From Patescibacteria group bacterium (GTDB lineage Bacteria > Patescibacteriota > Patescibacteriia > XYB2-FULL-38-15), in the NCBI GenBank assembly GCA_041737355.1, contig JBGSRW010000008.1, forward strand, positions 24,466 through 88,465: a DNA stretch of 64,000 bases. The letters are read 5' to 3'. Positions 3,696-58,348 of this stretch are shown piece after piece. Position 1 is the stretch's first letter; the number at the start of each line of letters is the position of its first letter. Under the pieces are notes generated by a model. It had not been told where the DNA came from. It did no database searches and was given only the letters and a program-made list of their open reading frames with translations. A program made the translations under genes and the position numbers.

Positions 3696-3766
3696 ATTTA
3701 TGACAATTTATTTTGGCTAAAATAAGCCAAAAGATAGGATTATTTTAGAAATAGTGTCAAAAGCCC

Positions 3767-3795
3767 TTGACAAAATCTAAGATACGTGTTATACT
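3767..3795 (+). promoter_or_regulatory. consensus sigma70-type promoter of the GC-rich island
   Basis: TTGACA (3767-3772), a 17-nt spacer, then TATACT (3790-3795). The -35 context is CTTGACAAAATCT. Confidence 0.7.
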
Positions 3796-3859
3796 TACTT
3801 GTTAAGCTGAAATAGGCTTAAAATAAAAAAAGTGCTTGTCGTGTCAAGTTCTTTACAAA

Positions 3860-4044
3860 GTGCCAGAGAAATTTGGAGGAGGAAGTCTTCGCGGACCATT
3901 TATTGGTAACCGCGTGACTCGGTGTTCGGTTGAGTTAAAGCTCGGTTTTCCCGTTTGGGACTACTAAGATTCAACTCGCCAAAACGCCATTGCTGTTCCA
4001 ATGCTAATTGGAGCGGCGCGCTCACCTCCAAATTCCTCTGGCAC
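3860..4044 (+). promoter_or_regulatory. structured 5' leader domain closed by a 20-bp stem
   Basis: GTGCCAGAGAAATTTGGAGG (3860-3879) pairs with CCTCCAAATTCCTCTGGCAC (4025-4044) at 19 of 20 positions. The stem encloses about 145 nt with several local hairpins (for example CGCGGACCA..TGGTAACCGCG and CCAAT-GCTA-ATTGG). It lies between the promoter and the SD of the 4131 ORF. Confidence 0.55.
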
Positions 4045-4130
4045 ATCTCCGTGAAAAATCGGAGGGCCAAAGGTCAGACTGTGGATGTTCCCGGTCTGAT
4101 TTTAGTAAACGCAAATAAGGAGGTTTTCTG

Positions 4131-5384
4131 ATGGAGAACGGCAGCAAGGAGATTGTGGTTGGCAAGGAGCCGACGGCTACGGCCGAGGCGTTCCTCGAGC
4201 CGCCGAGCGAGGACGACGAGTGGTTGCTCCTGGATTTCAATCCGGCGGCGACCGAGTCCGCGCCGGCCGTGCCCGAGACGCCGAAGCCCAAGCCGCCGCG
4301 CGTCTGCGCGATCTGCCAGCACCCCTCCGGGAATTCGGTGGGCAAGATCAAGCGCGGGCGGATCGCCGAGGTCGAGCACGAAGGGATGAAGCTGCTCACG
4401 CTCGAACCAATCTGCGAACCGTGCGGCGAGAAGTTGCCGCCCGAGGAGCGGAAGAGGCTCTTCAAGGCGGGGTACCTCATCTCCCTGATCGGCGAGAAGA
4501 ACCGCGAGATGCGCGAGTTCGAGGCGGCCAAGGCCTACTGGGCTGCGGTCTTCGCCGGTACGGCAGAGCGGATGCCCGAGGCTCGCAAGACGCCCGAGGA
4601 GATGCTCTCCTGCGGGGTGCCCGGCTGCCCCCGCTGTCACGATCAGGTCGGCCACAAGGTCGGCCACTTCGTGGCGATGACGATCGGCGGCATGCCGACG
4701 CTTCTCGGGGTCTGCTCCTTCCAGGCCGCGGCCTTGGCACAGTGCGGGGTCGAAAAGAAGGGCATCGTCGTGACGACGAAGTTCTCCGTGGCCGCCCCGA
4801 TCGTCGAGGCGGAGAACGCCAGGCTCCAGGCCTTCGAGAAGGCCAAGAGTTTCTGGCTCGCCGTGGCCGAAGGCGAGGCGGCGGTCGAGGCGCGGGCCGA
4901 GAAGACCGAGCGCGGCGACATCTACCGCTGCGGCGTCCCCGGCTGCAAGTGCCGGGAGCACGGCGACCGGCCGGTCGACTACTTCGTGGTCTTGGACGGC
5001 CAGCCCGAGATGCCCATCGCGGGTGTCTGCCGATACCAGTATGCGGCGCTCCGGACCTCCGGGGTGAAGATCTTCGCCGCGAACAACAACGACGGGATGG
5101 GCCTCGCGCGGTGCGCCAAGCACCGCAACTGGCTCCTCGGCCAGGCCAAGAGGGCCATCCGCGACGTCCGGAGGCCGGACGGAATCGGCGGCGGTCTCTC
5201 CCGTTTCCGCTCGCCCGAAGAACAGGCGCGGATCCGCGAGGAGAAGCGCCGGACGTTCGAGGAGCGCGAGGCCAAGCGCCGCTCCCGGCAACTCGAGCGG
5301 GCCAAGGCCTCCTCCAGCAAGGCCGGCTGCGGCAAGAAGGCCAGCAGCAAGAAGGGCGGCAAGGGCGGCGGCAAGAAGCACTAG
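4131..5384 (+). CDS. orphan protein with three tandem Cys/His-rich modules and a Lys/Gly-rich C-terminal tail (gene A)
   Basis: SD AAGGAGG (4117-4123) sits 7 nt before the ATG. Codon third positions are GC-rich in this frame. The ORF has three repeated modules and the tail ...SSSKAGCGKKASSKKGGKGGGKKH. Confidence 0.7.
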   Translation: MENGSKEIVVGKEPTATAEAFLEPPSEDDEWLLLDFNPAATESAPAVPETPKPKPPRVCAICQHPSGNSVGKIKRGRIAEVEHEGMKLLTLEPICEPCGEKLPPEERKRLFKAGYLISLIGEKNREMREFEAAKAYWAAVFAGTAERMPEARKTPEEMLSCGVPGCPRCHDQVGHKVGHFVAMTIGGMPTLLGVCSFQAAALAQCGVEKKGIVVTTKFSVAAPIVEAENARLQAFEKAKSFWLAVAEGEAAVEARAEKTERGDIYRCGVPGCKCREHGDRPVDYFVVLDGQPEMPIAGVCRYQYAALRTSGVKIFAANNNDGMGLARCAKHRNWLLGQAKRAIRDVRRPDGIGGGLSRFRSPEEQARIREEKRRTFEEREAKRRSRQLERAKASSSKAGCGKKASSKKGGKGGGKKH

Positions 5385-5419
5385 CTGGCCGGCCGCTCTC
5401 CCACCAATTTGTTCTTTTC

Positions 5420-5542
5420 TTGGAGCAAGTAGTCTGTGCAATGCAGACACTGTTCGTCAATCACTCTAAGGTGAACGGCGACAGGATCTTGCTCCAAGTC
5501 CTTTTCCTCCAAATCAGCGTAAGTTGGTCTGGAGAAAAGGGA
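5420..5542 (+). repeat. 123-nt structured repeat, copy 1 (R1), just after the gene A stop
   Basis: Identical base for base to 6114-6236. It contains a perfect 10-bp closing helix, TTGGAGCAAG/CTTGCTCCAA, around two hairpins. A second imperfect hairpin of about 12 bp follows (5499-5542). Confidence 0.9.
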
Positions 5543-5597
5543 ATTAGCTCTTTGGCAATTTCGGCGCATAGCGCCGTAGAAAGAAAGGAGATAGTTG

Positions 5598-5930
5598 ATG
5601 GTTCAGGTTCTGATGCTGGCCCTGTTCAGCGTCGCCAAGCGCGACGAACGCGAGGCGAGCGACGAGGGCAGTGAGACCGACGCGGTCGAGCTGCCCGAGG
5701 ATTCGGTCAACTGGCGGGCGGTTCGTTGGCTGGGCGTCGCGAAGATGCCGCGCCGTCGGGGTGGTCGGGCGGCCAACCGTTGCCTTGCCGACATCCCGCC
5801 GCCACCGGTTCGTTTCTCGCGCGAAGGGTTTGACGGACTTCATTCGTGGAAGCGTCAGACTCCGGCCCGCCGTCAGTGGGCCAAGCATCTTCGGAAATCT
5901 TGGGGGCGCGGAAAGAAGGTGGAGGTATGA
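5598..5930 (+). CDS. orphan Arg-rich protein, 110 aa (gene B)
   Basis: SD AAGGAG (5585-5590) sits 7 nt before ATG 5598. Third positions are GC-rich. The stop overlaps the next start (ATGA at 5927-5930). Confidence 0.55.
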   Translation: MVQVLMLALFSVAKRDEREASDEGSETDAVELPEDSVNWRAVRWLGVAKMPRRRGGRAANRCLADIPPPPVRFSREGFDGLHSWKRQTPARRQWAKHLRKSWGRGKKVEV

Positions 5931-6106
5931 AGAAGGAGTGTCGCAAGAGCGTGCCGGAGGTCAAGACGGGAGAGGGTGTTTACATCCTCCGCGTCATGCC
6001 CCAGCCGTCCGTCTGCGCGCACGAGGCGGTCCGTCCCTCCACCCGGCCGATCATACGCTCCGCCATCAAGATCGTCGGCCAGCACGGCCGCGACTGTCTC
6101 CCATAG
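5927..6106 (+). CDS. orphan protein, 59 aa (gene C)
   Basis: ATG 5927 is preceded by GGTGGAGG and overlaps the gene B stop. Third positions are GC-rich. The ORF ends at TAG 6104-6106, directly before repeat copy 2. Confidence 0.5.
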   Translation: MKKECRKSVPEVKTGEGVYILRVMPQPSVCAHEAVRPSTRPIIRSAIKIVGQHGRDCLP

Positions 6107-6113
6107 TTTGTTC

Positions 6114-6236
6114 TTGGAGCAAGTAGTCTGTGCAATGCAGACACTGTTCGTCAATCACTCTAAGGTGAACGGCGACAGGATCTTGCTCCAAGTCCTTTTC
6201 CTCCAAATCAGCGTAAGTTGGTCTGGAGAAAAGGGA
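6114..6236 (+). repeat. 123-nt structured repeat, copy 2 (R2), just after the gene C stop
   Basis: 100% identical to 5420-5542. Weaker similarity extends upstream (CTCCCA..TTTGTTC). Confidence 0.9.
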
Positions 6237-6286
6237 TTCCAAAATTTTTTAGCCATTTTTACGGCTAGTCAGATCCCACGCAAGGG

Positions 6287-6315
6287 CACCGCCAGTTGGC
6301 GGTGTTTTTGTTTTT
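6287..6315 (+). terminator. intrinsic terminator closing the GC-rich island
   Basis: CACCGCC (6287-6293), loop AGTT, GGCGGTG (6298-6304), then TTTTTGTTTTT. Confidence 0.8.
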
Positions 6316-6321
6316 AAAATG

Positions 6322-6330
6322 TGCTATAAT
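6322..6330 (+). promoter_or_regulatory. extended -10 promoter (TGCTATAAT)
   Basis: An exact TGCTATAAT. The same 9-mer recurs at 8646, 16113, 17286, 26872 and 38529. Confidence 0.55.
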
Positions 6331-6360
6331 AGTCCAATATTTATTTTACGTAATGTTTTT

Positions 6361-6459
6361 ATGAAAAAGAAAAATTTGCAGAAAATAGTATGGATAATTG
6401 TCTCAGCTATTGTAGTTTTTTCCATGGTTGTCTGGACAATCGGGCCAATGCTGTATTAG
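6361..6459 (+). CDS. possible small hydrophobic protein (32 aa)
   Basis: ATG..TAG encodes MKKKNLQKIVWIIVSAIVVFSMVVWTIGPMLY, a single transmembrane-like segment, downstream of the 6322 promoter. There is no SD and it is too short for the ORF track. Confidence 0.3.
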   Translation: MKKKNLQKIVWIIVSAIVVFSMVVWTIGPMLY

Positions 6460-6489
6460 CCGCGGAGTTTGTAATTTGTTATTAAAAGT

Positions 6490-8660: not shown

Positions 8661-10220
8661 ATGGAAAAGGCAAGAAAAATCCTTGGCAGCAAAATTTTTA
8701 AATTGGCGCTGATTTTATTTTTTGTATTTTTAATCGGCGCTTTTTTGTTAATTAGGGAAAAAGTAAATGAAGTCAGGGCCGGAGAAGACGATAATGTCGG
8801 AGGATGGGCATGGTCGGAAAATTTCGGCTGGTTTTCGGGAAATTGTTCAAATTTGGGATTGTGTCCGGACGATCCGCCACCGCCCTACAATTACGGATTA
8901 AACGTGGACAGCAGCGGAAATGTCACCGGATACCTTTGGTCGGAACATCTGGGATGGGTTCAGTTTGGCGGACTTTCGGGTATGCCCTCTCCTGGGCAGG
9001 CGTTGTTTGACAACGGGAGCGACCGGGTTTCCGGCTGGGCCAAGATTTTAGCTTTGGGTGACGACGGTTGGCTGAAACTCCGGGGTAATATAGCTGCCGC
9101 GGGAGGCGGCCCCTTAAGGCAATGCCTTGATTGCGACGACGTTCTGGACGGGGAAGGGAACCCGATAGATGTCGCTTGCCGGATTTGTTTCAAATCGGAA
9201 AATTACGGAGGGAGCGGAAACATTTGCAATAATTGTTCCGGGTGCGTCCGCGGAGCGGAGACTCAGTGCGGAAATTGTACCGATTGCAGCGTTTACGGGG
9301 TAGCTATTGACCGGCAGACCGGGAAAATGGTCGGATGGGCTTGGAATGGAAATTCTGATCCGGCCGCGGCCGTCGGAGCGGGGTGGGTAAATTTTTCTCC
9401 GACCGCCGGAGGGCTGGGTTTGGCCGCGCCATGGCTTGAAACGATATACGGAGAAATTTACGGTAAGCCATTCGTCCGGTCGCCCTCTGCGTTCGTGGAA
9501 GTACTCGGAAAATACAACGCGACTTACTGCGTCCTCACTACCAGACAGATAACCCATTTCACTAGTAAAGAAGGATGTCTTATCACGCCTTTTGAAAGTT
9601 TTGATTTTCCAAAAACAAGCAATCTTTACACCAATGTTTTCGGAAAAATTGATTTAGCCGGGATTTTAGCCGAAAAATATGGGACGGTGCAGAATATAAA
9701 CGACGAGTCGGGCATCCAGGATGTTTTAGCCGGAAAAGTTTATTTTCGCGACGGGGACTTAACAATTACCGGAAAAACTTTCAACAACGGAACTGGCGGC
9801 CAAAACGGCGCGGGTTTGATTGTGGTTAAGGGAAATTTGAATATTAACGGAGCTATCGCTTACCAAAATGCCGGAGTAACAAATTTGAAAAATTTGGCCT
9901 CGGTGGGATGGCTTGTCGTAAAACGCGATGACGGAACCGGTGGAAATATTATTATAAATCAGAACGTGGAAAATATGATCGGGGCATTTTACGCGGAAAA
10001 TGAGGTGACGACCGGAACCTCTGGCGACTGGCGGACCGATAAAGCATTAACGGTTCGTGGTTTGATTTTGGCCCATAAATTCAATTTTCAGCGTCTTTGG
10101 CAATCGGCAGCCCGCGGTTCGGAACAGATTGTATACGACGGACGGGTCTTGGCCAATACGCCTCCAGGGATGACGGATCTGATAAGAGCCTTACCGACTT
10201 GGCGGGAAGCGGCGCCATAA
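8661..10220 (+). CDS. secreted or surface protein with GW-type repeats and a Cys-rich segment
   Basis: It has an N-terminal TM/signal anchor (IFKLALILFFVFLIGAFLLI). The motif G[WY]xWS..xGW..F recurs several times. A cluster of more than 10 Cys follows (CLDCDD...CRIC...CNNCSGC...CGNCTDC). I chose ATG 8661 rather than the TTG at 8643. Confidence 0.7.
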   Translation: MEKARKILGSKIFKLALILFFVFLIGAFLLIREKVNEVRAGEDDNVGGWAWSENFGWFSGNCSNLGLCPDDPPPPYNYGLNVDSSGNVTGYLWSEHLGWVQFGGLSGMPSPGQALFDNGSDRVSGWAKILALGDDGWLKLRGNIAAAGGGPLRQCLDCDDVLDGEGNPIDVACRICFKSENYGGSGNICNNCSGCVRGAETQCGNCTDCSVYGVAIDRQTGKMVGWAWNGNSDPAAAVGAGWVNFSPTAGGLGLAAPWLETIYGEIYGKPFVRSPSAFVEVLGKYNATYCVLTTRQITHFTSKEGCLITPFESFDFPKTSNLYTNVFGKIDLAGILAEKYGTVQNINDESGIQDVLAGKVYFRDGDLTITGKTFNNGTGGQNGAGLIVVKGNLNINGAIAYQNAGVTNLKNLASVGWLVVKRDDGTGGNIIINQNVENMIGAFYAENEVTTGTSGDWRTDKALTVRGLILAHKFNFQRLWQSAARGSEQIVYDGRVLANTPPGMTDLIRALPTWREAAP

Positions 10221-16204: not shown

Positions 16205-16648
16205 ATGTTTAAAAATAAAAAAGGTTTCACTTTGATCGAATTGTTGGTGGTTATCGCCATCATCGGTCTTCTCTCGACTTTGGCGGTCGTTGCCTTGAGC
16301 AGCGCCAGAACCAAAGCCAGAGACGCGAAAAGAACTGCCGACATGAAGCAGGTTCAGACAGCCATGGAGCTCTATTATAATACTAATAGCGCTTATCCTT
16401 CATGCGCCGCCGGTACATTGGTTTCGGCTTGCGCCGCCTTAGCACCTGATTACTTGCCGGGCGTTTTGACCCTGAAAGATCCGGGTGGAGTTGCCGGTGC
16501 TTGCGCCGATCCGGCAGCAGCGAAATGTAACTACGCCTTTGGTACTGCCGCAGCGAACGAAGGCTATAGAATTACTTTCTGGCTTGAAGGAGCGACCGGA
16601 GATTTGGCTGCCGGAGCCCACAGAGTTACGGCTATGGGAATCCAGTAA
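16205..16648 (+). CDS. pilA: type IV pilin, paralog 1
   Basis: Class III signal peptide KKG|FTLIELLVVIAIIGLL with Glu at +5. SD is AAGGAGGTG. Confidence 0.9.
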   Translation: MFKNKKGFTLIELLVVIAIIGLLSTLAVVALSSARTKARDAKRTADMKQVQTAMELYYNTNSAYPSCAAGTLVSACAALAPDYLPGVLTLKDPGGVAGACADPAAAKCNYAFGTAAANEGYRITFWLEGATGDLAAGAHRVTAMGIQ

Positions 16649-16755: not shown

Positions 16756-17217
16756 ATGTTTAAAAATAAAAAAGGTTTCACTTTGATCGAATTGTTGGTG
16801 GTTATCGCCATCATCGGTCTTCTCTCGACTTTGGCGGTCGTTGCCTTGAGCAGCGCGAGAACCAAAGCCAGAGATTCAAAACGCGTGGCCGACATGAAGC
16901 AGGTTCAGACAGCCATGGAAATGGTTTTCAGCGAAGCCAACAGCTACGCCTTGGCTGGATGCACAACGGCCGGTAATAAGGTCAGCCTCTGCACCACGCC
17001 GCTCTCAACTTATTTGCCGAACGTCGCCAATCTTAAGGATCCGAAGGGGTTAAGCGCTTGCGCCGTAGCTTGTGATGGAACAATCACCGCGGCCTGCGAT
17101 TACTCGGTTAAAACCGTGCCGACTGCAAGTACTTACGAGTTTTGTTTCTATTTGGAAACAGCTACGGGCGATTTAGCGGCCGGAGCCCATAAAGTTACGC
17201 CAGCTGGGATTCAATAG
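16756..17217 (+). CDS. pilA: type IV pilin, paralog 2
   Basis: It has the same prepilin N-terminus. The first 101 nt of the CDS plus 16 nt of the RBS are identical to paralog 1. The C-terminal domain diverges. Confidence 0.9.
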   Translation: MFKNKKGFTLIELLVVIAIIGLLSTLAVVALSSARTKARDSKRVADMKQVQTAMEMVFSEANSYALAGCTTAGNKVSLCTTPLSTYLPNVANLKDPKGLSACAVACDGTITAACDYSVKTVPTASTYEFCFYLETATGDLAAGAHKVTPAGIQ

Positions 17218-25692: not shown

Positions 25693-25723
25693 TTGCATTT
25701 TTTTGGGTTCGTTGCAATATAAA
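25693..25723 (+). promoter_or_regulatory. candidate promoter of the GC-rich kinase-like island
   Basis: TTGCAT (25693-25698) plus an AT-rich -10 region (TGCAATATAAAAT, 25713-25725), followed by the SD GGAGGAAGGAG. Confidence 0.4.
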
Positions 25724-25740
25724 ATGATGGAGGAAGGAGA

Positions 25741-26808
25741 ATGCGAATGCCAAAGGGTAGAAGGCCGCACACTGTGCTTTGCGCTAACCGGCGAGCCGGC
25801 TGGCGCTTTGAACAATGGTCGGAGTTGGACCAGTGGAGCCTCGAGGCCGGCATCAGAACATATGCCCTATCAGAGATCGAAGAGCTCGATCCCGTCATCG
25901 CGAATTTCGATGACGAGACGCTGCTTCTCCTGATTTACGGCGGGGACGGAACCCTGCTTCAGATTATGAACAGCTTGCTCCGGCGCAAACGGCGCAAGGG
26001 CAAGCCAAAGCCGAAAATGCCGATCATTGTGCCCGTCGGAGGAGGCACGATGAAACGCCTGCCGCGCTGGGCGCTTTGGAACGGCACGCCGGCTGAAAAT
26101 GCCATGACAGCCCTTGAACTTTTCGAGGGCAAGCGTCTGCCGTACCTGCCTCTTCCCTTGCTAAAAGTGGAGTGGGGTGGGCAATGCTACTTCGCGGTCA
26201 CTCTCATGGCTGGAGCCTTGGTTCGTATCATGCAGGAGTACTCGCGTTTCAAGACAACGCCGGCAATTGCCGGACTTTTTTCCGCCGGAGCCTTGGCCGC
26301 CGCGGCCTTTGACAGGCCAAAGTTTTTCACCAGACTCTACGGGCAAATCCGGGCCAAGGTGACCTCCGACGGAGAGGTTCTCGGGACCGAACGGTTCATT
26401 GTCGTGATTCGTGACGTTCTCGAGGAATTGATTTTCTCGATCAAACCGTACAAGGGAATCTGCGCGCCGGGCCAGTCCTTCTCTCTGGCCTACGCCATCG
26501 ACTACCACGAGGTGGCGCGAAAGTTTCCTTGGATTGTTGCGGGAGCGGTTCCCGGCAACGACCCCCGGTATTTCAATCGGCCGGCAAGTTTAACCGTAAT
26601 CGAGCCGCACGAGGAGATTCCCTTTACGCTCGACGGCGAATACTTTACGGCCAAGCCGGGCGAGACCATCAAGGTTTCCCAGGGGCCGGAAGTAAGAGTT
26701 GCCGTTAACCCGTTCGTTCATCTGACTCTTCTGAAACGGTTTTTGAATCGCGGCAGAAGCTTGAAGGAGGTCGTGAGTTACATTTTTCCTACGCCGAGAA
26801 AGAACTAG
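25741..26808 (+). CDS. DAGK_cat/NAD-kinase-superfamily protein (GGDGT motif), GC-rich
   Basis: LLLLIYGGDGTLLQIMNSLL...MPIIVPVGGGT matches the diacylglycerol/lipid kinase catalytic-domain pattern. It has a strong SD, and its composition differs clearly from its neighbours. Confidence 0.65.
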   Translation: MRMPKGRRPHTVLCANRRAGWRFEQWSELDQWSLEAGIRTYALSEIEELDPVIANFDDETLLLLIYGGDGTLLQIMNSLLRRKRRKGKPKPKMPIIVPVGGGTMKRLPRWALWNGTPAENAMTALELFEGKRLPYLPLPLLKVEWGGQCYFAVTLMAGALVRIMQEYSRFKTTPAIAGLFSAGALAAAAFDRPKFFTRLYGQIRAKVTSDGEVLGTERFIVVIRDVLEELIFSIKPYKGICAPGQSFSLAYAIDYHEVARKFPWIVAGAVPGNDPRYFNRPASLTVIEPHEEIPFTLDGEYFTAKPGETIKVSQGPEVRVAVNPFVHLTLLKRFLNRGRSLKEVVSYIFPTPRKN

Positions 26809-26822
26809 GCGTGAGGCCGTAT

Positions 26823-26850
26823 AAGCGGATTTGAGGAATCCGCTTTTTTT
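26823..26850 (+). terminator. intrinsic terminator
   Basis: AAGCGGATT, loop TGAGG, AATCCGCTT, then TTTTT. Confidence 0.85.
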
Positions 26851-26918: not shown

Positions 26919-28322
26919 ATGATCACTATTGATTTTAGTTATTTTGAAACGCTTGGAGCCATGTCGCCCCTCGCGATAATGTGGAGGCTTTTTGCTGACG
27001 GAGGATGGGTAATTGTTTTGTGGGTTTTTGTAGGGGGGTTTTGGGCTATTTTTGTAAACTGGCGGCAGTCTCTTTACGGGGCTAAACGCCGTTTTGTTTA
27101 TTTAGCGGTTGATATTCCCAAAACGTCGGAGGACGAGCCCAGTCAATCTCCTCGTGCTGTAGAAAATATTTTTTCTCATCTAGACGGGGCACATGGCACG
27201 GATACTCTCTGGGAGAAGTACTGGGAGGGAAAGACTCAGGATATTTTTAGTTTGGAAATAGTCAGCATTGAAGGCTACATCCAATTTGTTATCCGCACCC
27301 GCGATAAATATCGCGATTTGGTTGAAGCGGCAATCTATGCGCAATATCCAAACGCGGAAATTACCGAGGTCGTTGACTACACCCAATTCGCGCCTAAAAA
27401 ATTTCCCGATCCGGAATGGGAACTTTTCGGTACCGAGTGGATCAACGTAAAACCCGAGGCTTATCCGCTCCGCACTTACCATGACTTTGAAGATCCGGCG
27501 ACCAAGGAATTCAAAGATCCTCTTGCCGCCATGCTTGAAACCATGTCAAAGATGGGCAAGGGTGAACAAATTTGGTTTCAGATAATTATTACGCCGATCA
27601 GTCAGAAAGAATGGAGTCAAAAGGGAGAAAAATTAGTAAAAAAATTAATCGGCTCCAAAGTCGAATCCAAAAAAACCTGGATGAACACGATTGTTGATTT
27701 GCCGGTTAAAGTTGCCGACACGGCCTTGAACCAGATTTTAAGCAGCGAGGAGGGGGTCAAGAAAAAAGAAGATAAAAAGGAAGCATCTTTGATGCAATAT
27801 CTTTCACCGGGTGATAAAATTATGGTGGAGGAAATTGAAAATAAGATTTCCAAGATTGGTTTTAAGACCAAGATAAGAATGATCTATCTTGCGAAGAAGG
27901 AAATTTTTAAAAAAACACGCGCCGCCCATCCGATGATTGGCGCAATGAAACAGCTCAACACTCTCGACGGCCAAAGCTTGAAACCGGAGTATAAGAAAGT
28001 CGGGACATCTGCTCATTATATCTTGGTTAATAAACGGGTTCAGTGGAAGCAAAACAAAATTTTAAGGGCTTATAAGGGGCGGAGCAACTGGCAGGGTCTG
28101 GGTAAGGGGTTTGTTTTGAATATCGAAGAGCTGGCGACCTTGTGGCACTTCCCGGCGGCCTGGATCAAGGCGCCGTCGGTTAAAACGGTTGAGAGTAAAC
28201 GCGGCGTGCCGCCGGTCAATCTTCCGCTTGAACAACCTAGTTTTATGAAACCGATGACTGAGGTAGAACAGGAGCCCAAGGGAAAACCGGAAGAAGTACC
28301 GCCAGAGCTGCCGGTTGTTTAA
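26919..28322 (+). CDS. membrane protein, partner of the downstream coupling-type ATPase
   Basis: 467 aa with two N-terminal TM segments and then a large soluble domain. It ends 9 nt before the ATPase gene. Confidence 0.65.
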   Translation: MITIDFSYFETLGAMSPLAIMWRLFADGGWVIVLWVFVGGFWAIFVNWRQSLYGAKRRFVYLAVDIPKTSEDEPSQSPRAVENIFSHLDGAHGTDTLWEKYWEGKTQDIFSLEIVSIEGYIQFVIRTRDKYRDLVEAAIYAQYPNAEITEVVDYTQFAPKKFPDPEWELFGTEWINVKPEAYPLRTYHDFEDPATKEFKDPLAAMLETMSKMGKGEQIWFQIIITPISQKEWSQKGEKLVKKLIGSKVESKKTWMNTIVDLPVKVADTALNQILSSEEGVKKKEDKKEASLMQYLSPGDKIMVEEIENKISKIGFKTKIRMIYLAKKEIFKKTRAAHPMIGAMKQLNTLDGQSLKPEYKKVGTSAHYILVNKRVQWKQNKILRAYKGRSNWQGLGKGFVLNIEELATLWHFPAAWIKAPSVKTVESKRGVPPVNLPLEQPSFMKPMTEVEQEPKGKPEEVPPELPVV

Positions 28323-28331: not shown

Positions 28332-30329
28332 ATGAGTCATGAGGAAATAGCACTTTTTGCCGAAACAAATTTCCGCGGTGAGCGGAAGCGTTTCGGTATA
28401 AAGACCGACGACCGCCGCCGGCACGTTTATATTATTGGTAAAACCGGTATGGGAAAATCAACCATGCTGGAGAATTTTATTATTTCCGATATCAGAGCGG
28501 GGCACGGCGTCGGCGTGGTTGATCCGCACGGCGATTTGGCTGAGAAAATTTTGGATTTTATTCCTCCGAACAGGGTGAACGACGTGGTTTATTTTAATCC
28601 GGCAGATCTCGATTGGCCGATTGCTTTTAATATTTTGGAGTCAATCGACCCGAGATATAAGCATCTTGTCGCCTCCGGCATGATGGGAGTCTTCAAAAAA
28701 ATCTGGCCCGATGTCTGGTCGGCCAGAATGGAATATATTTTGAATAATACGATTCTCGCGCTTTTGGATTGTCCGGGGTCAACAATGCTCGGGATTAACA
28801 GAATGTTGGCTGACAAAGATTACCGGAAGAAAGTCATTCTTAAATTAAAAGATCCGGTGGTCAAAGCTTTTTGGGTTGATGAGTTTGCCAAATACAACGA
28901 GCGGTTTGCTACCGAAGCCATCGCTCCAATCCAAAATAAGGTTGGCCAATTCCTCTCGGCATCCATTGTCAGAAATATTGTCGGTCAGGTGAAGTCAACG
29001 ATTGACATGCGCGAGATCATGGATAACCAGAAAATTTTTATAATGAATCTTGCGAAAGGAAGAATTGGTGAAGATGCGAGCGCTCTGTTGGGTAATATGC
29101 TTGTTACAAGACTGCAGCTTGCGGCCATGGCACGGGTCGATGTTCCGGAACCGAAGAGAAAAGATTTCTATCTCTACGTTGATGAATTTCAAAATTTTGC
29201 CACTATAAGTTTTGCCAATATTTTATCTGAGGCGAGAAAATACCGCCTGAATCTTATTTTAGCCCATCAATATATTGAACAGCTGGCTGAAGAAGTCGCC
29301 GCTGCCGTTTTCGGAAACGTCGGCACGATTGCTTCTTTTAGGGTCGGGGCGGCCGACGCTGAAGTTTTGGAAAAAGAATTCTCCCCGACTTTCACGGCCG
29401 AAGACCTGGTAAACCTCACAAAATATGATATGTATTTAAAATTGATGATTGACGGCGTGTCTTCATCGCCGTTCTCTGCTATAGGCTTGCCTCCGGTAAT
29501 CGGTTCGACCGGCAACAGGGATAAAGTGATCAGGGTTTCCCGGGAGAGATACGCCAAACCCAAAGAAATTGTTGAAGAAAAAATTATCCGCTGGAGCGGG
29601 GTGCAGATTGCCGGGGAAGAAGAAAAATCAGACGAAGAGATTGAAGCGGAAATTAAAAAATCCATTGGAGAACAAAAAAAGACGGCAGGGGAATTAATGG
29701 AAAAAAGAACAGAAAAAGGAAGTCATGAAGTGTCCGGAGCCGAACTGGAGGCGCGGGCGATTACCGCCCGTGAGGCGATTCTTGAACGGAATAAAGTCCA
29801 AGCTGTTGATTTTCTAAGCCATTTGGAAGAAAAAAAAGAACCGGCCCCTCCGCAAATAATAGTTGAGCCTGCCCCCGTATTTATCCGTCCAACCAATAAA
29901 GTTGATATTAAGCTCGAGCTTAAAAATGAGGTGACTCCGCCAAAAGAGGAACCAAAAAGAGAACCGGCGCCAATCGTGGAAAAAGAAGTGAAGTCATCGC
30001 CGGTCCAAGTGCTTCCGAAAAAAATAGAAGAACCAAAAACTGCCGTCGTCGCACCGGCGGTTATTCCACAATCAAAAACAACGCAAGCGCCGGCCGCCGG
30101 GCAAAATAAGAAAACCCGCGAAGAACTTTTTCCTTACGAAATTAAATGTTCCGCCTGCGGCAAGCCGGACAGGGTTTCCTTCAACCCCGATCCCAACAGA
30201 CCGGTCTACTGTAAGGATTGTCTGAAAATAGAAAGAGAAAAAGAGAGGCTGGCCAAGAAGAATAAAAACGGACCGGGCGGACCGCCAAAAAAGACGGAAG
30301 AAAAATCAGTGGATAATATAAAAGTATAA
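28332..30329 (+). CDS. VirD4/TraG/TraD-like P-loop ATPase with a C-terminal CxxC-CxxC zinc ribbon
   Basis: Walker A (IIGKTGMGKST), Walker B (FYLYVDEFQNFAT), a long low-complexity linker and the terminal motif CSACGKPDRVSFNPDPNRPVYCKDC. Confidence 0.7.
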   Translation: MSHEEIALFAETNFRGERKRFGIKTDDRRRHVYIIGKTGMGKSTMLENFIISDIRAGHGVGVVDPHGDLAEKILDFIPPNRVNDVVYFNPADLDWPIAFNILESIDPRYKHLVASGMMGVFKKIWPDVWSARMEYILNNTILALLDCPGSTMLGINRMLADKDYRKKVILKLKDPVVKAFWVDEFAKYNERFATEAIAPIQNKVGQFLSASIVRNIVGQVKSTIDMREIMDNQKIFIMNLAKGRIGEDASALLGNMLVTRLQLAAMARVDVPEPKRKDFYLYVDEFQNFATISFANILSEARKYRLNLILAHQYIEQLAEEVAAAVFGNVGTIASFRVGAADAEVLEKEFSPTFTAEDLVNLTKYDMYLKLMIDGVSSSPFSAIGLPPVIGSTGNRDKVIRVSRERYAKPKEIVEEKIIRWSGVQIAGEEEKSDEEIEAEIKKSIGEQKKTAGELMEKRTEKGSHEVSGAELEARAITAREAILERNKVQAVDFLSHLEEKKEPAPPQIIVEPAPVFIRPTNKVDIKLELKNEVTPPKEEPKREPAPIVEKEVKSSPVQVLPKKIEEPKTAVVAPAVIPQSKTTQAPAAGQNKKTREELFPYEIKCSACGKPDRVSFNPDPNRPVYCKDCLKIEREKERLAKKNKNGPGGPPKKTEEKSVDNIKV

Positions 30330-30953: not shown

Positions 30954-30971
30954 TCTTCGGAGGAGGGAGAA

Positions 30972-31271: not shown

Positions 31272-31276
31272 TTTTC

Positions 31277-31305
31277 GCGATGGCTTAAGCGCCGTCGCTT
31301 TTTTT
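31277..31305 (+). terminator. intrinsic terminator
   Basis: GCGATGGC / GCCGTCGC stem (one G-U pair) followed by TTTTTTT. Confidence 0.75.
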
Positions 31306-34232: not shown

Positions 34233-34281
34233 GGCGTTGGGGGAGTATTTGACATTAAATTGGATATCCACTAAAATAAGC

Positions 34282-39585: not shown

Positions 39586-39615
39586 TTGACTAATACGCAG
39601 AAATAGTTCTAAATA
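39586..39615 (+). promoter_or_regulatory. candidate promoter of the GC-rich island d
   Basis: TTGACT (39586-39591), an 18-nt spacer, TAAATA (39610-39615). The SD AGGAGGG follows. Confidence 0.4.
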
Positions 39616-39635
39616 AAACTAGAAGGAGGGTAGCT

Positions 39636-39821
39636 ATGGCAGAAGAAAATAGCGGGAAACCGCGGGATGATCGAAGTGATCGCGACCGTGATGTTCCAGG
39701 AATGCCCAAGGGATGGCGGCCCGGAGACCTGATCGTGATTCCGCTTGGACCTGAAGACGAATTTCCTGAGAGCAGGATGGATTTCTCTCTCCCGTTCTGG
39801 GTGGGAACGCCCGTGGAGTAG
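39636..39821 (+). CDS. orphan acidic/charged small protein, 61 aa
   Basis: SD GAAGGAGGG sits 6 nt before the ATG, and the gene has its own terminator. The GC-rich region is open in several frames, so the frame choice rests on the SD and start codon. Confidence 0.45.
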   Translation: MAEENSGKPRDDRSDRDRDVPGMPKGWRPGDLIVIPLGPEDEFPESRMDFSLPFWVGTPVE

Positions 39822-39856
39822 CTCGGCCCAATCTCCACTACTGCTTGTGCCATCAT

Positions 39857-39887
39857 CGGCGCCGAGCTCCGCTCGCGCCGTTTTTTT
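39857..39887 (+). terminator. intrinsic terminator
   Basis: CGGCGCCGAGC, loop TCC, GCTCGCGCCG (one bulge), followed by TTTTTTT. Confidence 0.8.
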
Positions 39888-39892
39888 ATCCA

Positions 39893-39920
39893 TTGATTTT
39901 TTATATTAGTATGGTAAGGT
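39893..39920 (+). promoter_or_regulatory. candidate promoter of the 39948 gene
   Basis: TTGATT (39893-39898), a 16-nt spacer, TAAGGT (39915-39920), with TG at 39912-39913 (extended -10). Confidence 0.45.
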
Positions 39921-39947
39921 AAATCGATTTCCTAAAGGAGGGAGGGA

Positions 39948-40814
39948 ATGCAAAAAAAGGAGATGTCTCCTGAAAGTGTGAGCGAGTGCGCTCGTCTGAC
40001 TGAAGCGGAACTGGCCAACTTGGGCGTTGTCCTTTCCGCCTACCGTTCTTTCCGAGGCGACCGGCGTCGACATATCGCCTACGTCACGATGCCGATCACG
40101 ACCGGCCGGCGGTTGCGCGACATCCTGACAACGCGCCACGCGAAGAGCGCCGCAGAACTTGCGGCCAAAATCGGCAGAGAGGCCTTTTTTGACCTCGTGA
40201 TCAGACCAAACATCGCGGAGGGAATTGCTTTTGCCGACAGAGTCGCAGCAAGGGATTCACTGCTTTGCGTTGCGCCTTCGGTGTTCAGTGCCAGGTGCTG
40301 GCAATGGTCGCAGGATGCCTACATGTCCCTTTGGTACCGCGTTCTGGGAGAAATGGCCGGAGCGCATTATCTCATGGACGGCTGGGAATACTCCGTCGGC
40401 GGCGTGAAAGAAGCGATGTTTTCCATGGCCATGCAGTGGCGCATCTTCCGGCGCTACAACATCCACAAGATGGCGCAGGCCTGGGGTCTAGAGAATTTTC
40501 ATCCCGGCATGAGCCCGCAAGCGGAAATAGCCGAGCTTGAGCGCATGTGGAGCATCCGCCTTTACGACGAACAGGGCAAGGAACTTCGCATCGATCAAAT
40601 CCTGGCGATGGTTGTTCGCGCAATCAAGGAGCTGGCAAAAAACGGCTTGCCGTACGAGGATCTGCTCGGCCCCGCCCGGAACCTGAAGGGGATGCCCATA
40701 CTGTCACCGCTTATCGGCGGCGGCAACCGGTATGACGAGCCGTTTGTTCCGGAAGTGACGGATGCGTACGTGATGGCGGCAGATGAGCTCGTGGCATTCG
40801 AGGCCGCCCATTAA
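39948..40814 (+). CDS. nucleoside 2-deoxyribosyltransferase-like (DUF4406-like) domain protein with an unknown C-terminal domain, GC-rich
   Basis: IAYVTMPITTG ... W.QDAYMSLWYRVLGEMAGAHYLMDGWEYSVGGVKEAMFSMAM fits my recollection of the DUF4406 pattern (hYhAGPhoG ... GWE.S.G...E...A). SD is AAAGGAGGGAGGG. Confidence 0.55.
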   Translation: MQKKEMSPESVSECARLTEAELANLGVVLSAYRSFRGDRRRHIAYVTMPITTGRRLRDILTTRHAKSAAELAAKIGREAFFDLVIRPNIAEGIAFADRVAARDSLLCVAPSVFSARCWQWSQDAYMSLWYRVLGEMAGAHYLMDGWEYSVGGVKEAMFSMAMQWRIFRRYNIHKMAQAWGLENFHPGMSPQAEIAELERMWSIRLYDEQGKELRIDQILAMVVRAIKELAKNGLPYEDLLGPARNLKGMPILSPLIGGGNRYDEPFVPEVTDAYVMAADELVAFEAAH

Positions 40815-40842
40815 CGCGGCAGGAGTCGCTCATAGTCGAGAT

Positions 40843-40876
40843 AACGACGCGGACAGCAGTTTGCGTCGTTCTTTTT
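40843..40876 (+). terminator. intrinsic terminator
   Basis: AACGACGC (40843-40850) / GCGTCGTT (40863-40870) followed by CTTTTT. Confidence 0.75.
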
Positions 40877-40877
40877 A

Positions 40878-40906
40878 TTGATTTTTTCTATAAATCGCGG
40901 TAAAAT
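40878..40906 (+). promoter_or_regulatory. promoter of the flippase/glycosyltransferase pair
   Basis: TTGATT (40878-40883), a 17-nt spacer, TAAAAT (40901-40906). The ATG lies 14 nt downstream with no SD, so the mRNA is near-leaderless. Confidence 0.5.
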
Positions 40907-46361: not shown

Positions 46362-46390
46362 TTGACCTTTAAATTTAAATTTGCTATAGT
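46362..46390 (+). promoter_or_regulatory. promoter of the GC-rich RNA gene
   Basis: TTGACC (46362-46367), a 17-nt spacer, TATAGT (46385-46390). Confidence 0.65.
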
Positions 46391-46396
46391 TTAATC

Positions 46397-46651
46397 AACT
46401 TGGAGCAGTCAGACTGGCAAGGGCTGCTCGCGCGCCGCGAAGCATGTTTCGGGCGCCAAGTTCTGCTAACCACCAGTTGCGGGGCTAAGTAGCGACGAGC
46501 GAAAAGCCTGCAATACCGCCCGCAGCGACCCGCTGAACCTCGCGGATCGCGAGCCGAGCATCCCTGCGCACCATGGGTAAAGTCCGACGTCACGTCGACG
46601 CGGTACCGTGGCTGAGCGCGAACTAATGCTCACTGGTGGTTTATTTTTTTT
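46397..46651 (+). ncRNA. unassigned GC-rich structured RNA, about 255 nt
   Basis: It has its own promoter. There is no SD-led ORF longer than 17 aa. A 5' domain is closed by AACTTGG/CCAAGTT (46398-46404 / 46456-46462). A second domain is closed by a 10-bp helix, AACCACCAGT/ACTGGTGGTT (46468-46477 / 46632-46641), followed by T8. Many GC hairpins lie inside (CTCGCG-GAT-CGCGAG, CAGCG-ACC-CGCTG, CGACG-TCA-CGTCG). Confidence 0.6.
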
Positions 46652-46670
46652 GGCTTAATTAAAATTTTTA

Positions 46671-50440: not shown

Positions 50441-50484
50441 AAAAAAAGAGAGGCGTTTGTCTTACGGGACAGGCGCCTCTTTTG
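50441..50484. terminator. bidirectional intrinsic terminator
   Basis: A7 run, then AGAGGCG (50449-50455) / CGCCTCT (50474-50480), then TTTT. It lies between convergent genes. Confidence 0.7.
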
Positions 50485-50502
50485 TTGCGCTATTTCTACC
50501 TC

Positions 50503-50931
50503 CTAATGTACTTCTTGCCGCAGGAAAATTCGAAGTTTTTCGTCGCACAGGACGAAATGAAGACGTTCTCTTTCACCTTCGGCTGCGATATCGATGCAGT
50601 TGACGGCCTCTTCCCTGAGGTCAGTCCAGAGTTTTTCTTCGTGTCCGGGACTCGGCGTCAGGCCGAGGAAAAACCATTTCCGTTTGATCTCCTTCACTTT
50701 GTCGACGTTGCAGACGATTGTCGTGCCGTCGGCCAGCCAGAGGGTCACGAGAAAACCCTCGAACCAATCGAGCGGAAAGATTTCACCGTCTCGTTCGAGG
50801 CGGACGATGAGTTCTTTGATTGCGCCGCCGGTGCGAACAGAAAACATCAATCTATCGATGAGTTTCCCGCCGATCCATTCGGCTCTCTTTTGAGGGAGGG
50901 TTTTCTGCCCTTTGAAGATATTTCGGCTCAT
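50503..50931 (-). CDS. orphan GC-rich protein, 142 aa
   Basis: On the minus strand, SD AAGGAGGTG precedes the ATG and there are a promoter and a terminator. Third positions are GC-rich in this frame. The antisense ORF 50482-51078 has no such signals. Confidence 0.6.
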   Translation of the reverse strand: MSRNIFKGQKTLPQKRAEWIGGKLIDRLMFSVRTGGAIKELIVRLERDGEIFPLDWFEGFLVTLWLADGTTIVCNVDKVKEIKRKWFFLGLTPSPGHEEKLWTDLREEAVNCIDIAAEGERERLHFVLCDEKLRIFLRQEVH

Positions 50932-51022
50932 CGCACACCTCCTTGCGGTGGGCGCGATGCGTATTTCCTGGCTGAAGATTCCCCCTTGACTTCAGTCAAA
51001 GCCACACGCTTCGCAGCCGTTT

Positions 51023-51051
51023 ACCTTATATTATATCAAAGATTTTGTCAA
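51023..51051 (-). promoter_or_regulatory. promoter of the 50931 gene (minus strand)
   Basis: On the minus strand: TTGACA, a 17-nt spacer, TAAGGT. The -35 context CTTGACAAAATCT is identical to the 3766 promoter. Confidence 0.5.
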
Positions 51052-51086
51052 GAGATGAGGTGCGATTTGCGGAAATAGCTTTATTT

Positions 51087-52786: not shown

Positions 52787-52787
52787 C

Positions 52788-57261: not shown

Positions 57262-57346
57262 AACGCTTGCCTAGATTTTTTAAATAGTTTATACTTACCA
57301 ATATTAAAACCTAAGGGGGTCCCTTTTTCGGGATTAAAAGCAAACT

Positions 57347-57811
57347 ATGCAAGATCAAAAAATGTACGTTTCTAAGGAAGGTTTGGAAAAGTTTAAACAG
57401 GAACTGAGCGAATTAATAAATGTTAAGCGCGGAGAAATTATTGAACGTATTGAGAGAGCCAAAGAATTAGGAGATCTTTCGGAAAACGCCGAATATTCGG
57501 CGGCCAAAGACGAGCAGGCTTTCACAGAGGGAAGAATCATCGAGTTGCAGGAAATGGTTTCCAAAGCGGAAATTATCAACGGTGGTGGCAGGATAGACAA
57601 TGTCCACGTCGGTTCAAAAGTAAAAGTGAAAAGCGACGGAACCGAAGCGGAGTATGAAATTGTCGGCGTTGCTGAAGCGGACCCACTGACCGGAAAAATT
57701 TCCAACGAATCTCCCCTCGGCCGGGCATTCCTTGGCCGTAAGGTAGGGGACAAAGTGCAGATTCAGATTCCCAAGGGAATGGTTGTTTATACGATTTTAG
57801 AAATAAAATAA
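57347..57811 (+). CDS. greA: transcription elongation factor GreA
   Basis: ELGDLSENAEYSAAKDEQAFTEGRIIELQ...; 154 aa. Confidence 0.9.
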   Translation: MQDQKMYVSKEGLEKFKQELSELINVKRGEIIERIERAKELGDLSENAEYSAAKDEQAFTEGRIIELQEMVSKAEIINGGGRIDNVHVGSKVKVKSDGTEAEYEIVGVAEADPLTGKISNESPLGRAFLGRKVGDKVQIQIPKGMVVYTILEIK

Positions 57812-57827
57812 GAGTAACGAATAATTT

Positions 57828-57852
57828 GCCAGGCCGTAAGGCCTGGCTTTTG
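57828..57852 (+). terminator. intrinsic terminator after greA
   Basis: GCCAGGCC, loop GTAA, GGCCTGGC, then TTTT. Confidence 0.85.
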
Positions 57853-57858
57853 TTATAC

Positions 57859-57887
57859 TTGACAAAAAGGCGTAAATGTTTTAAGTT
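57859..57887 (+). promoter_or_regulatory. promoter of a GC-rich orphan gene
   Basis: TTGACA (57859-57864, in the context CTTGACAAAA), a 17-nt spacer, TAAGTT. Confidence 0.45.
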
Positions 57888-57930
57888 ATAAAATCCTCAA
57901 TTTCGAGGAAAAGAAGTAGGAAGGGAAAAG

Positions 57931-58257
57931 ATGGGACCGGAAATTGCGATCCAGTTGGCCTTGCGCCAGAAGCTGGCAGCTTTCGGCATCAGGAACCACG
58001 TCGAGCCGGAGGTGATTCCGAACGCTTTGAATGCGGTTCGACTTCTGGGTCACAGCCAGATTCTTGTCTTGGGTAGCTGTAGCGCGTCTTCTCCATGGTC
58101 AAAGACCACGGATGAGCCGATCGTGGCTCTGACTTGCAGGATGATCACGGACATGCAGCTCAAGGGAGAGAGGATCGAAATCACAACCACGCCCGACACG
58201 TCCGAGGAACGCGAGAAGACTGGCTTCCGCCGGATCGACCTGCGCCTCAAGAAGTAG
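57931..58257 (+). CDS. orphan GC-rich protein, 108 aa
   Basis: An SD-like AGGAAGGG precedes the ATG. Third positions are GC-rich. It lies between greA and lysS and has its own promoter. Confidence 0.55.
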   Translation: MGPEIAIQLALRQKLAAFGIRNHVEPEVIPNALNAVRLLGHSQILVLGSCSASSPWSKTTDEPIVALTCRMITDMQLKGERIEITTTPDTSEEREKTGFRRIDLRLKK

Positions 58258-58319
58258 ACGGCCCGCGCGCCGCTTTCCCGGAAACCCGACACAGACCACA
58301 AATCGGTGTCTTTTTTATT

Positions 58320-58348
58320 TTGACATTAATTTATTTTTAAGTTAAAAT
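58320..58348 (+). promoter_or_regulatory. lysS promoter
   Basis: TTGACA (58320-58325), a 17-nt spacer, TAAAAT (58343-58348). Confidence 0.6.

Follow-up and report, generated by a model that had tools for sequence, protein, structure and literature searches.

How do genes of foreign-looking composition come to stand, each with its own promoter and terminator, between the housekeeping genes of a bacterium? The question is raised by a 64,000-nt stretch of DNA of a Patescibacteria group bacterium (assembly GCA_041737355.1, contig JBGSRW010000008.1, positions 24,466 to 88,465; this whole stretch is called the window hereafter), in which a first-pass annotation, made from the sequence alone, had marked seven GC-rich islands and proposed that single genes were acquired repeatedly from a GC-rich donor that uses Shine–Dalgarno (SD) sequences, perhaps a host, and were then wired to a common promoter type. 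The seven islands are real: their spans add up to 6,703 bp, or 10.5% of the window, with a GC content of 0.568 inside and 0.438 outside, and the GC of single spans lies between 0.51 and 0.61. We think it rather probable, on the evidence given below, that they are endogenous accessory cassettes, inherited vertically and clade-wide in fixed slots of a Parcubacteria-type lineage of the Patescibacteria, and that they are not recent imports. Open reading frames (ORFs) are named after their islands (I1a, I1b, I1c, I2 and so on), and the coordinates of the features are collected in Table 1.

Slots and composition of the cassettes

Relatives of the window were found through homologues of I1a and of RpoA and by exact-sequence look-ups, and the nearest named ones are metagenome-assembled genomes of the 'Patescibacteria group' or of Parcubacteria. 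L001, L168 and L176 represent the JGI contig Ga0315286_10000005, whose core proteins are 85–93% identical to those of the window, L175 and L177 represent the complete-looking NCBI genome OZ246416.1 (RpoA 76% identical to that of the window), L004 and L172 are further relatives, and the relatives used for slot 6 (L087 and L088) are short close contigs from a metagenome scan for class II aminoacyl-tRNA synthetases; for AlaRS, the matches listed in genome contigs come from distant genomes, at ≤64% identity. Core genes of the window differ from those of L001, L004 and L168 by ~0.8–1.5 synonymous substitutions per site (dS), sometimes to saturation, with a ratio of nonsynonymous (dN) to synonymous substitution of 0.04–0.09. 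Relatives with core-gene dS of this order carry islands 1, 2, 3, 4a and 4b at the same junctions and with the same composition, which contradicts both the repeated acquisition from a GC-rich donor and the strain-specific insertion that had been suggested; slots 5 and 6 are occupied in relatives as well, and there the contents differ. In L001, L004, L172 and L177, island 1 occupies the lepA|recJ junction at ~70% GC against a background of 43–47%, and its promoter is kept in all four. The I2 homologue of L176, at the same junction, is 89% identical at the amino acid level, with dN/dS of 0.13 and a GC content at third codon positions (GC3) of 0.74 compared with 0.68 in the window. Homologues of I3 in the queH|mnmA slot of L170, L174, L175 and L176 share 43–57% amino acid identity with it and have a GC of 0.53–0.54 versus 0.40–0.46. 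The I4a homologue in the queA|flippase slot of L174 is 64% identical, and that of I4b in L168 is 77–78% identical (amino acids) with dN/dS of 0.16, I4b being missing from L170, L174 and L175.

The composition of I1a appears to be held, and not to be the leftover of a transfer, because its synonymous sites have turned over and yet have stayed G or C. In five lineages its GC3 is 0.93, 0.96, 0.94, 0.93 and 0.93, and at codons for conserved amino acids 23–36% of the third positions differ between lineages; 51–65% of these differences are exchanges between G and C, compared with ~5–10% in lepA and recJ. From a back-of-envelope two-state model we infer that an unconstrained GC3 excess should lose about half or more at ≥0.5 synonymous substitutions per site per lineage, and I1a lost none. 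Ordinary expression-linked codon bias was considered as the source of the high GC3 and rejected: the ribosomal-protein genes are rich in A-ending codons and lack high GC3, so that this is not the usual codon adaptation of the genome. The I1a protein itself changes fast, with dN of 0.35–0.42 (~8 times that of core genes), dN/dS of 0.73–0.87 and pairwise amino acid identities of 51–57% that are star-like and track lepA weakly. Together with I1b, I1c and I3 it evolves ~5–10 times faster than core proteins, whereas I2 and I4b evolve like ordinary proteins.

The GC excess of the islands is limited to the translated region, with a step at the start and stop codons. Island ORFs have a GC of 0.52–0.69 and a GC3 of 0.55–0.93, compared with ~0.41–0.49 and ~0.45–0.52 for native genes; the 100 nt up- and downstream of the island ORFs are native-like or more AT-rich, and the flanking leaders and 3′ RNAs of the cassettes are of native composition. 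The cassette proteins in turn differ from those of the core by a preference for Arg over Lys, by more Trp and by less Ile, Asn and Lys.

The expression signals support the description of the islands as distinct, autonomous, accessory-type cassettes that lie between core genes and have a common promoter type. An SD of the GGAGG type had been attributed to every protein-coding cassette; GGAGG does stand 5′ of I1a, I2, I3, I4a, I4b and I6, I1b has AAGGAGA, and I7 has only GGAAGGG. Most native genes are indeed without an SD; among them GGAGG was found only at two pilin paralogs and at lepA, there probably by chance, and the association of an SD with excess GC is concentrated in close relatives and rare in more distant Patescibacteria loci. 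The two tandem type IV pilin-like paralogs (16205–16648 and 16756–17217, + strand) share a 180-nt 5′ repeat that is 95% identical and have an identical AAAGGAGGTGAAAGA SD, and they are the only genes of near-native GC (0.50–0.51) with a strong SD. This strong SD at genes of near-native GC suggests that the SD is functional in the source organism for highly expressed genes.

The extended −35 motif CTTGACAAAA, said to be common to four cassettes, has four matches in the window, all of them at cassette promoters, where 0.29 would be expected by chance and none of 100 shuffles gives as many, and the places first given for the 13-mer CTTGACAAAATCT and for two TAAGGTAAA sites are exact. The promoter of island 1 (TTGACA-17-TG-TATACT) is the top sigma-70-like match in the first 20 kb, with 11 of 12 positions and the TG, and cassette promoters of relatives as well as of the window repeatedly show the extended −35 (C)TTGACAAA. 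Native operons, however, are served by TTGACA-N16-18-TAnnnT too, at 34249 and 34282 (infA and ribosomal-protein genes), at 49950 (with TTGACAAAG) and at 58320 (lysS). The motif shared by the cassettes is a consensus sigma-70-type −35 plus an A-rich extension. Because it is a consensus −35, and because native operons share TTGACA-N17-TAnnnT, a dedicated cassette regulon is unproven, and the simplest reading is that the cassette promoters are strong housekeeping-type promoters. A hairpin with a T-run was read at every 3′ end, that of island 7 being, as first described, a weak one of 5 bp.

Table 1. Features of the seven islands and of extra cassettes in relatives (positions in the window unless a relative is named; terminators read from the sequence)
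Feature	Position	Strand	Details
Island 1 promoter	3766–3795	+	CTTGACAAAATCT, 17-nt spacer, TG-TATACT
Island 1 5′ leader (~330 nt)	3802–4130	+	multi-helix domain 3860–4044; terminator-like hairpin and U-run 4070–4103; SD 4118–4122
I1a	4131–5384	+	GC 0.69, GC3 0.93
3′ RNA element, copy 1	5405–5550	+	146 nt, four helices; covariance model R1 score 154 bits
I1b	5598–5930	+	GC 0.65
I1c	5927–6106	+	GC 0.65
3′ RNA element, copy 2	6099–6244	+	covariance model R1 score 150.8 bits; 100% identical to copy 1 over 126 nt
Island 1 intrinsic terminator	6287–6315	+	CACCGCC-AGTT-GGCGGTG then T5GT5; kept in L001, L004, L177
Island 2	25693–26850	+	GGAGG SD; terminator 26824–26850, hairpin and T-run
I2	25741–26808	+	355 aa; GC 0.57, GC3 0.68
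Island 3	30924–31305	+	CTTGACAAAAT promoter, GGAGGAGGG SD; terminator 31277–31305, hairpin and T-run
I3	30972–31271	+	99 aa, Cys/His motif; GC 0.54
Island 4a	39586–39890	+	own promoter, AGGAGGG SD; terminator ~39846–39888, hairpin and T-run
I4a	39636–39821	+	61 aa; GC 0.56
Island 4b	39893–40878	+	TTGATT-N16-TAAGGT promoter, AAAGGAGGGAGGG SD; terminator ~40845–40878, hairpin and T-run
I4b	39948–40814	+	288 aa; GC 0.58
Island 5	46362–46655	+	TTGACC-N17-TATAGT promoter, ~260-nt GC-rich transcript without ORF, closing helix and U-run; terminator ~46626–46655, hairpin and T-run
Island 6	50484–51052	-	CTTGACAAAATCT-N-TAAGGT promoter, structured leader, AAGGAGGTGTGCGATG start region; terminator ~50447–50483, hairpin and T-run
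I6	50503–50931	-	142 aa; GC 0.52
Island 7	57858–58320	+	CTTGACAAAA-N-TAAGTT promoter, weak SD GGAAGGG; terminator ~58295–58320, weak, 5 bp
I7	57931–58257	+	108 aa; GC 0.57, GC3 0.74
CTTGACAAAA matches	3766, 30924, 57858	+
CTTGACAAAA match	51043–51052	-
Extra cassettes, L176	1607–2377, 11867–12721
Extra cassettes, L168	17803–18240, 580–1407, 1523–1741
Extra cassette, L175	16725–17009

The operon of island 1 and its RNA elements

The outlines first drawn for the islands hold apart from two: island 4 consists of two cassettes, and the three genes of island 1 form an operon in which ~0.9 kb is structured non-coding RNA. The leader of this operon contains a multi-helix domain of ~185 nt that is closed by GCCAGAGAAAUUUGGAGG and CCUCCAAAUUCCUCUGGC, and the closing helix is invariant over 18 bp and pairs the SD-like GGAGGAGG with the anti-SD-like CACCUCC. 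On the 3′ side of the closing helix there follow a small hairpin, then the terminator-like hairpin (GGUCAGAC...GGUCUGAUUUU) with its U-run, which is kept in all five lineages, and then the SD. The leader is 91% identical to that of L001 at the nucleotide level, compared with ~83% for core coding sequence, and 23 of its 93 predicted pairs show compensatory changes among the five lineages. No match to it was found among the 4,227 families of Rfam 15 at the gathering score, and matches at E-values up to 10 did not rise above chance level. The multi-helix domain followed by a terminator-like hairpin directly 5′ of the SD suggests attenuation, and the layout as a whole suggests an attenuator or a riboswitch.

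The second RNA element of the operon is present in two copies, one after I1a and one after I1c, which form an exact 126-nt repeat. It has 47 pairs with 96% of the cells paired, and 21 pairs are changed on both sides, compared with 9.2 ± 1.8 in shuffles (0 of 500) and with ≤6 when slid. A covariance model, CM R1, built on seven copies of the element recovered in L177 a copy that it had not seen (127.7 bits, E ~1e-30) and had no match outside the island-1 loci over ~1 Mb of related sequence. The element was also considered for the other cassettes and rejected there, as CM R1 matches island-1 loci only. Like the leader, it is without a match in Rfam 15 at the gathering score, and matches at E-values up to 10 were at chance level only. 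One of the copies in L001 (11386–11436) has a (ATGCGAAT)n-like insert in the loop of the fourth helix. We regard the leader and the 3′ element as two well-supported candidate new RNA families.

The product of I1a is an orphan of 417 aa. It has three Cys/His-rich zinc-ribbon-like repeats, in which the motifs CxxC / CGVPGCxxC / HFVV / GxCxxQxAAL are conserved, and a basic KKGGKGGGKK tail, and it represents a genuine protein family. This family is tiny: there are 9 word-index matches to I1a, and in a set of 1.84 billion representatives 17 clusters belong to it, each of them named 'hypothetical'. Every member whose DNA context could be read lies in an AT-rich Patescibacteria contig and in the same chromosomal slot. 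Those members all fall within the clade and give no donor signal. No match of I1a was found in Pfam, NCBIfam, PADLOC or PHROG, its AlphaFold2 (AF2) model (pLDDT 73.7) has no fold match in the PDB, and no donor, phage, IMG/VR or plasmid homologue was found. I1b is a basic (isoelectric point 10.8), Trp/Arg-rich orphan of 110 aa with 44–57% amino acid identity among relatives, and I1c is an orphan of 59 aa (isoelectric point 9.8; 29–44% identity) whose start overlaps the stop codon of I1b (ATGA). Homologues of I1b follow I1a in L001 and L172, and L004 and L177 have I1a plus one 3′ element only. A metagenomic I1a homologue, P0008, is a fusion of I1a and I1b in frame and has neither the third repeat nor the 3′ element. 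Between island 1 and recJ lies a 32-aa membrane ORF (MKKKNLQKIVWIIVSAIVVFSMVVWTIGPMLY; 6362–6460, + strand) with its own TGTGCTATAAT promoter at ~6321–6333, which is also present in L001 (12497–12593), L004 (~8808–8903) and L177.

These features would fit a leader-controlled operon, in which attenuation in the leader acts on the ORFs and two copies of the 3′ element are interleaved with them. The products of I1a, I1b and I1c, being basic and zinc-ribbon-like, could bind the leader and the 3′ RNAs, either in autoregulation or in an RNA–protein complex, or in both.

The other cassettes, their turnover and their assembly

The window around the islands is compact, at ~44% GC, with nearly all genes on the + strand. 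It carries murJ, lepA, recJ, type IV pilus genes, gatCA, queH, mnmA, alaS and infA, a block of ribosomal-protein genes with rpoA, then queA, a flippase gene, a UvrD/PD-(D/E)XK helicase gene, aminoacyl-tRNA synthetase genes, greA and lysS; the names lepA, recJ, queH, mnmA, queA, flippase and greA, used at first for the flanking genes, are correct. In the 64 kb no tRNA and no Rfam family at the gathering score was found.

I2, called kinase-like at first sight, gives a weak signal of a DAGK/YegS-like kinase, with 21.2 bits against DAGK_cat PF00781 (cut-off 23.6) and 19.8 bits against TIGR00147 (cut-off 118.65), and it has no PDB sequence match and no plasmid match. Apart from this signal, no family was assigned to any island protein in Pfam, NCBIfam, PADLOC or PHROGs. 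Between islands 2 and 3 lie genes for a DUF8128 protein (26919–28322, +) and for a VirD4/TrwB-like coupling ATPase with a C-terminal CxxC-x17-CxxC domain (28332–30329, +), and this pair is kept in L170, L174, L175 and L176. For I4b no Pfam match was found even at E-values up to 10, and its single-sequence AF2 model is unusable (pLDDT 37.6). Residues 12–159 of I4b (39948–40424) match, in tblastn, plasmid genes of Rhizobium/Sinorhizobium annotated as DUF4406, at 27–31% identity and E-values of 7e-5 to 2e-4, which hints at a nucleoside 2-deoxyribosyltransferase-like fold for its N-terminal half.

Island 5, whose slot lies upstream of the UvrD-like helicase gene, had been called an RNA gene. It stands as a unit with promoter and terminator, without an ORF or a period-3 signal, but it has no Rfam match (gathering score; E-values up to 10) and its folding z-score of −1.41 is not significant; no homologue was found in the readable relatives. 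Island 5 may plausibly be an RNA gene. Because the same slot holds a 120-aa SD-led protein cassette in L170 (it is empty in L174), island 5 may also be a decayed cassette. The start of its transcript, CUUGGAGCAGUCAGACUGG (46395–46425), resembles that of the 3′ element of island 1, CUUGGAGCAAGUAGUCUG (5420–5450); CM R1 gives no score there, and the resemblance is probably a coincidence.

In slot 6 the signals outlast the gene. The promoter (CTTGACAAA-N17-TAAGGT), the first transcribed bases, the leader, the SD and the ATG are kept in L087 and L088, where the start region reads AAGGAGGTG(T/C)GCGATG and forms a hairpin enclosing the SD, while the ORFs of L087 and L088 have no similarity to I6 or to each other. 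Homology between ORFs that share a slot was examined for I6 and the L088 ORF, I4a and L168-126, I3 and L168-72, and the six-frame translation of island 5 and L170-120, and was rejected in each (z ≤1.8). The start region of island 6 (50926–50975, − strand) contains a stem, CATCGC / GCGATG, that takes in the AUG and leaves the SD in its loop, and this stem is present in three lineages; since the stem is kept in these three in spite of unrelated ORFs, it may be a hairpin for translational control. I7 is a singleton among protein clusters.

Turnover of cassettes among relatives is seen in the differing contents of slots 5 and 6, in the patchy presence of I4b and in extra cassettes present in relatives only. 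The latter stand in the ligA|gatC, glycosyltransferase|Na/Ca-exchanger and post-I3 slots, have a GC of 0.58–0.62 and a GGAGG SD, and several of them have TTGACAAA promoters. The matching slots of the window, at 22872|22903 (ligA|gatC), at 43528|43588 (glycosyltransferase|Na/Ca exchanger) and after I3, are empty. Two of the extra-cassette proteins, of 145 aa in L168 and of 94 aa in L175, look homologous.

None of the islands has a tRNA target or flanking direct repeats, and no integrase-like domain was found in the island proteins. These proteins also have no phage (PHROG) or IMG/VR relatives, and on plasmids only the weak DUF4406-like matches of I4b. Read support across the junctions had been named as a check on the islands, and in an independent Logan assembly (SRR28170473) the 12,571 bp that span island 4 agree with the window at 100% identity, so that these junctions are no assembly artefact.

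Explanations weighed and known systems

The reading that we favour, of endogenous cassettes in fixed slots, may be put as follows. Each cassette would be an autonomous unit: its sigma-70-type promoter is close to the consensus and in many cases has the extended −35 CTTGACAAA, its leader is often structured, and a GGAGG-type SD and an intrinsic terminator complete it. Slots and expression signals would be inherited vertically under purifying selection, and the ORFs would meet different fates, some being kept as ordinary proteins (I2, I4b), some evolving fast (I1a, I1b, I1c, I3), some being replaced or having diverged past recognition (slots 5 and 6), and some being gained or lost. The GC excess would be actively held in the translated region, perhaps because selection acts on the composition of codons or mRNA, perhaps through GC-biased conversion, and the cassettes as a class may encode factors that are strongly expressed, evolve fast and serve the interaction with a host or parasite. 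Several points weigh against this reading. An ancient horizontal origin, before the divergence of the clade, is possible, and the unrelated ORFs behind the kept start region of slot 6 could mean replacement rather than divergence. The statement that there is no donor comes mainly from a search for homologues of I1a, from plasmid and phage libraries and from clusters at 90% identity, the donor searches for the other island proteins being partial, and the comparison with relatives covers islands 1–6, island 7 standing outside it. The data do not tell apart selection, gene conversion biased towards GC and a continuing gene flow out of a GC-rich pool. Both the leader attenuation and the binding of the RNAs by the I1a, I1b and I1c products are read from sequence. 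Finally, about half of the Parcubacteria, a subgroup, reportedly lack the anti-SD of 16S rRNA (PMC9297842), which bears on how the SDs of the cassettes are to be read.

That single genes were taken up repeatedly and fairly recently from a GC-rich, SD-using donor, as first proposed, would agree with the foreign-looking codon and amino acid usage (GC3 0.6–0.93, Arg above Lys, rich in Trp), with strong SDs in a genome mostly without them, with the presence and absence of cassettes among relatives, and with type IV pilus or competence-type genes and a VirD4-like ATPase in the genome. We nevertheless hold it to be improbable, because I1, I2, I3, I4a and I4b keep junction and composition at synonymous saturation (by its own test the proposal failed for islands 1–4), because the third positions of I1a have turned over and stayed G or C, because the GC step falls exactly on the ORF boundaries while leaders and 3′ RNAs are native, and because neither a homologue of I1a outside the clade, in phages or on plasmids nor a tRNA, an integrase or flanking direct repeats were found. 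Sharp changes of composition at seven places might also raise the suspicion that GC-rich fragments of another organism were spliced in by assembly or binning; the identical Logan assembly across island 4, the same architecture in at least six independently assembled relatives (JGI, Logan, NCBI) and the native-composition promoters and terminators that frame each ORF leave next to no room for it. A continuing allelic replacement, in which ORFs are overwritten by homologous recombination anchored in the leader and terminator flanks from a GC-rich pool (an unsampled mobile element or virus of the clade, or related lineages), would account for flanks that are more conserved than the ORFs, for unrelated ORFs behind identical start regions in slots 5 and 6, and for the star-like identities of I1a. 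It seems to us rather unlikely all the same, as no GC-rich source sequence was found, as the I1a homologues with readable context all sit in the same slot of an AT-rich genome, and as I2 and I4b evolve like ordinary vertical genes.

High GC3 together with raised dN/dS is the classical signature of biased conversion, which in bacteria was reportedly described by Lassalle and colleagues in 2015, and fast-evolving I1a shows both. If gene conversion biased towards GC acted at recombination-prone slots, this pattern could arise without any selection on composition; but the excess ends at the start and stop codons and the interleaved RNAs are at ~45% GC (strong purifying selection on these RNAs could mask this), and I2 and I4b are GC-rich yet slow-evolving, so that this explanation has little likelihood in our view. 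A further possibility, to which we give some limited chance, is a second 'coding dialect' of the clade, maintained by selection (GC3 up to 0.96 plus a strong SD), in which fast-evolving accessory genes would be under a translation regime different from that of the SD-less, AT-rich core, and in which island 1 would be a new RNA–protein system whose RNA motifs are more conserved than its proteins. At the extreme such genes would be translated by other machinery, for example that of a GC-rich host after transfer, and this is worth raising because of the reported lack of the anti-SD in the Parcubacteria subgroup.

Among known systems, the cassettes resemble phage morons, which are independent transcription units between conserved phage genes (PMC3594210), in being a single gene or small set with own promoter and terminator, in their conserved neighbours, odd composition and patchy presence, and in a function that is usually accessory or unassigned. 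They are unlike morons in their place among the housekeeping genes of a cellular chromosome (lepA|recJ, queH|mnmA, queA|flippase, greA|lysS), and in that most islands have long been vertical in fixed slots, with no horizontal source found and with a composition that is maintained and not decaying. The neighbours of the islands (lepA, recJ, queH, mnmA, alaS, ribosomal-protein genes, rpoA, queA, greA, lysS) and the absence of PHROG matches give no sign of a phage location. Short, fast-evolving proteins without assigned function and confined to a narrow clade are also typical of ORFans and small genomic islets. Bacterial ORFans are, however, typically more AT-rich than their genome, whereas the islands are 8–25 points GC-richer, an excess that persists through synonymous saturation of the core, and have the strongest expression signals of the region. 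Integron cassettes are likewise single-gene units whose contents turn over at defined sites, but those of the window have a promoter each and dispersed slots, without integrase or attC: no repeated attC-like inverted repeats were found, and no integrase among the window ORFs checked. With riboswitch, attenuator and ribosomal-protein leaders island 1 shares a covarying 5′ domain, a terminator-like hairpin with a U-run and small basic proteins that could bind the leader, and it differs in a leader outside Rfam and in a second RNA motif in two copies after ORFs. Island 5 is similar to the GC-rich non-coding RNA genes of AT-rich genomes as an ORF-less GC-rich unit with promoter and terminator, and unlike them in having no family match or significant folding z-score and in a slot that is a protein cassette in a relative.

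In some Patescibacteria genomes horizontal gene transfer, for the most part with other Patescibacteria as the source, reportedly accounts for as much as 13% of the length (PMC12455944), and composition-based calls of this kind would include such cassettes. Detection by composition would label ~10% of the window as foreign, although atypical composition can be a stable, heritable property of a gene class, which is a caution for the use of island predictors on Patescibacteria. I1a, fast-evolving and with GC3 near 0.95 in a 44% GC genome, offers a clean natural case in which to ask what maintains GC, selection on mRNA and codons or biased conversion. The phylum of the candidate RNA families is one in which very few regulatory RNAs have been characterised, and the contrast between SD-led cassettes and an SD-less core makes the start of translation in Parcubacteria directly testable.

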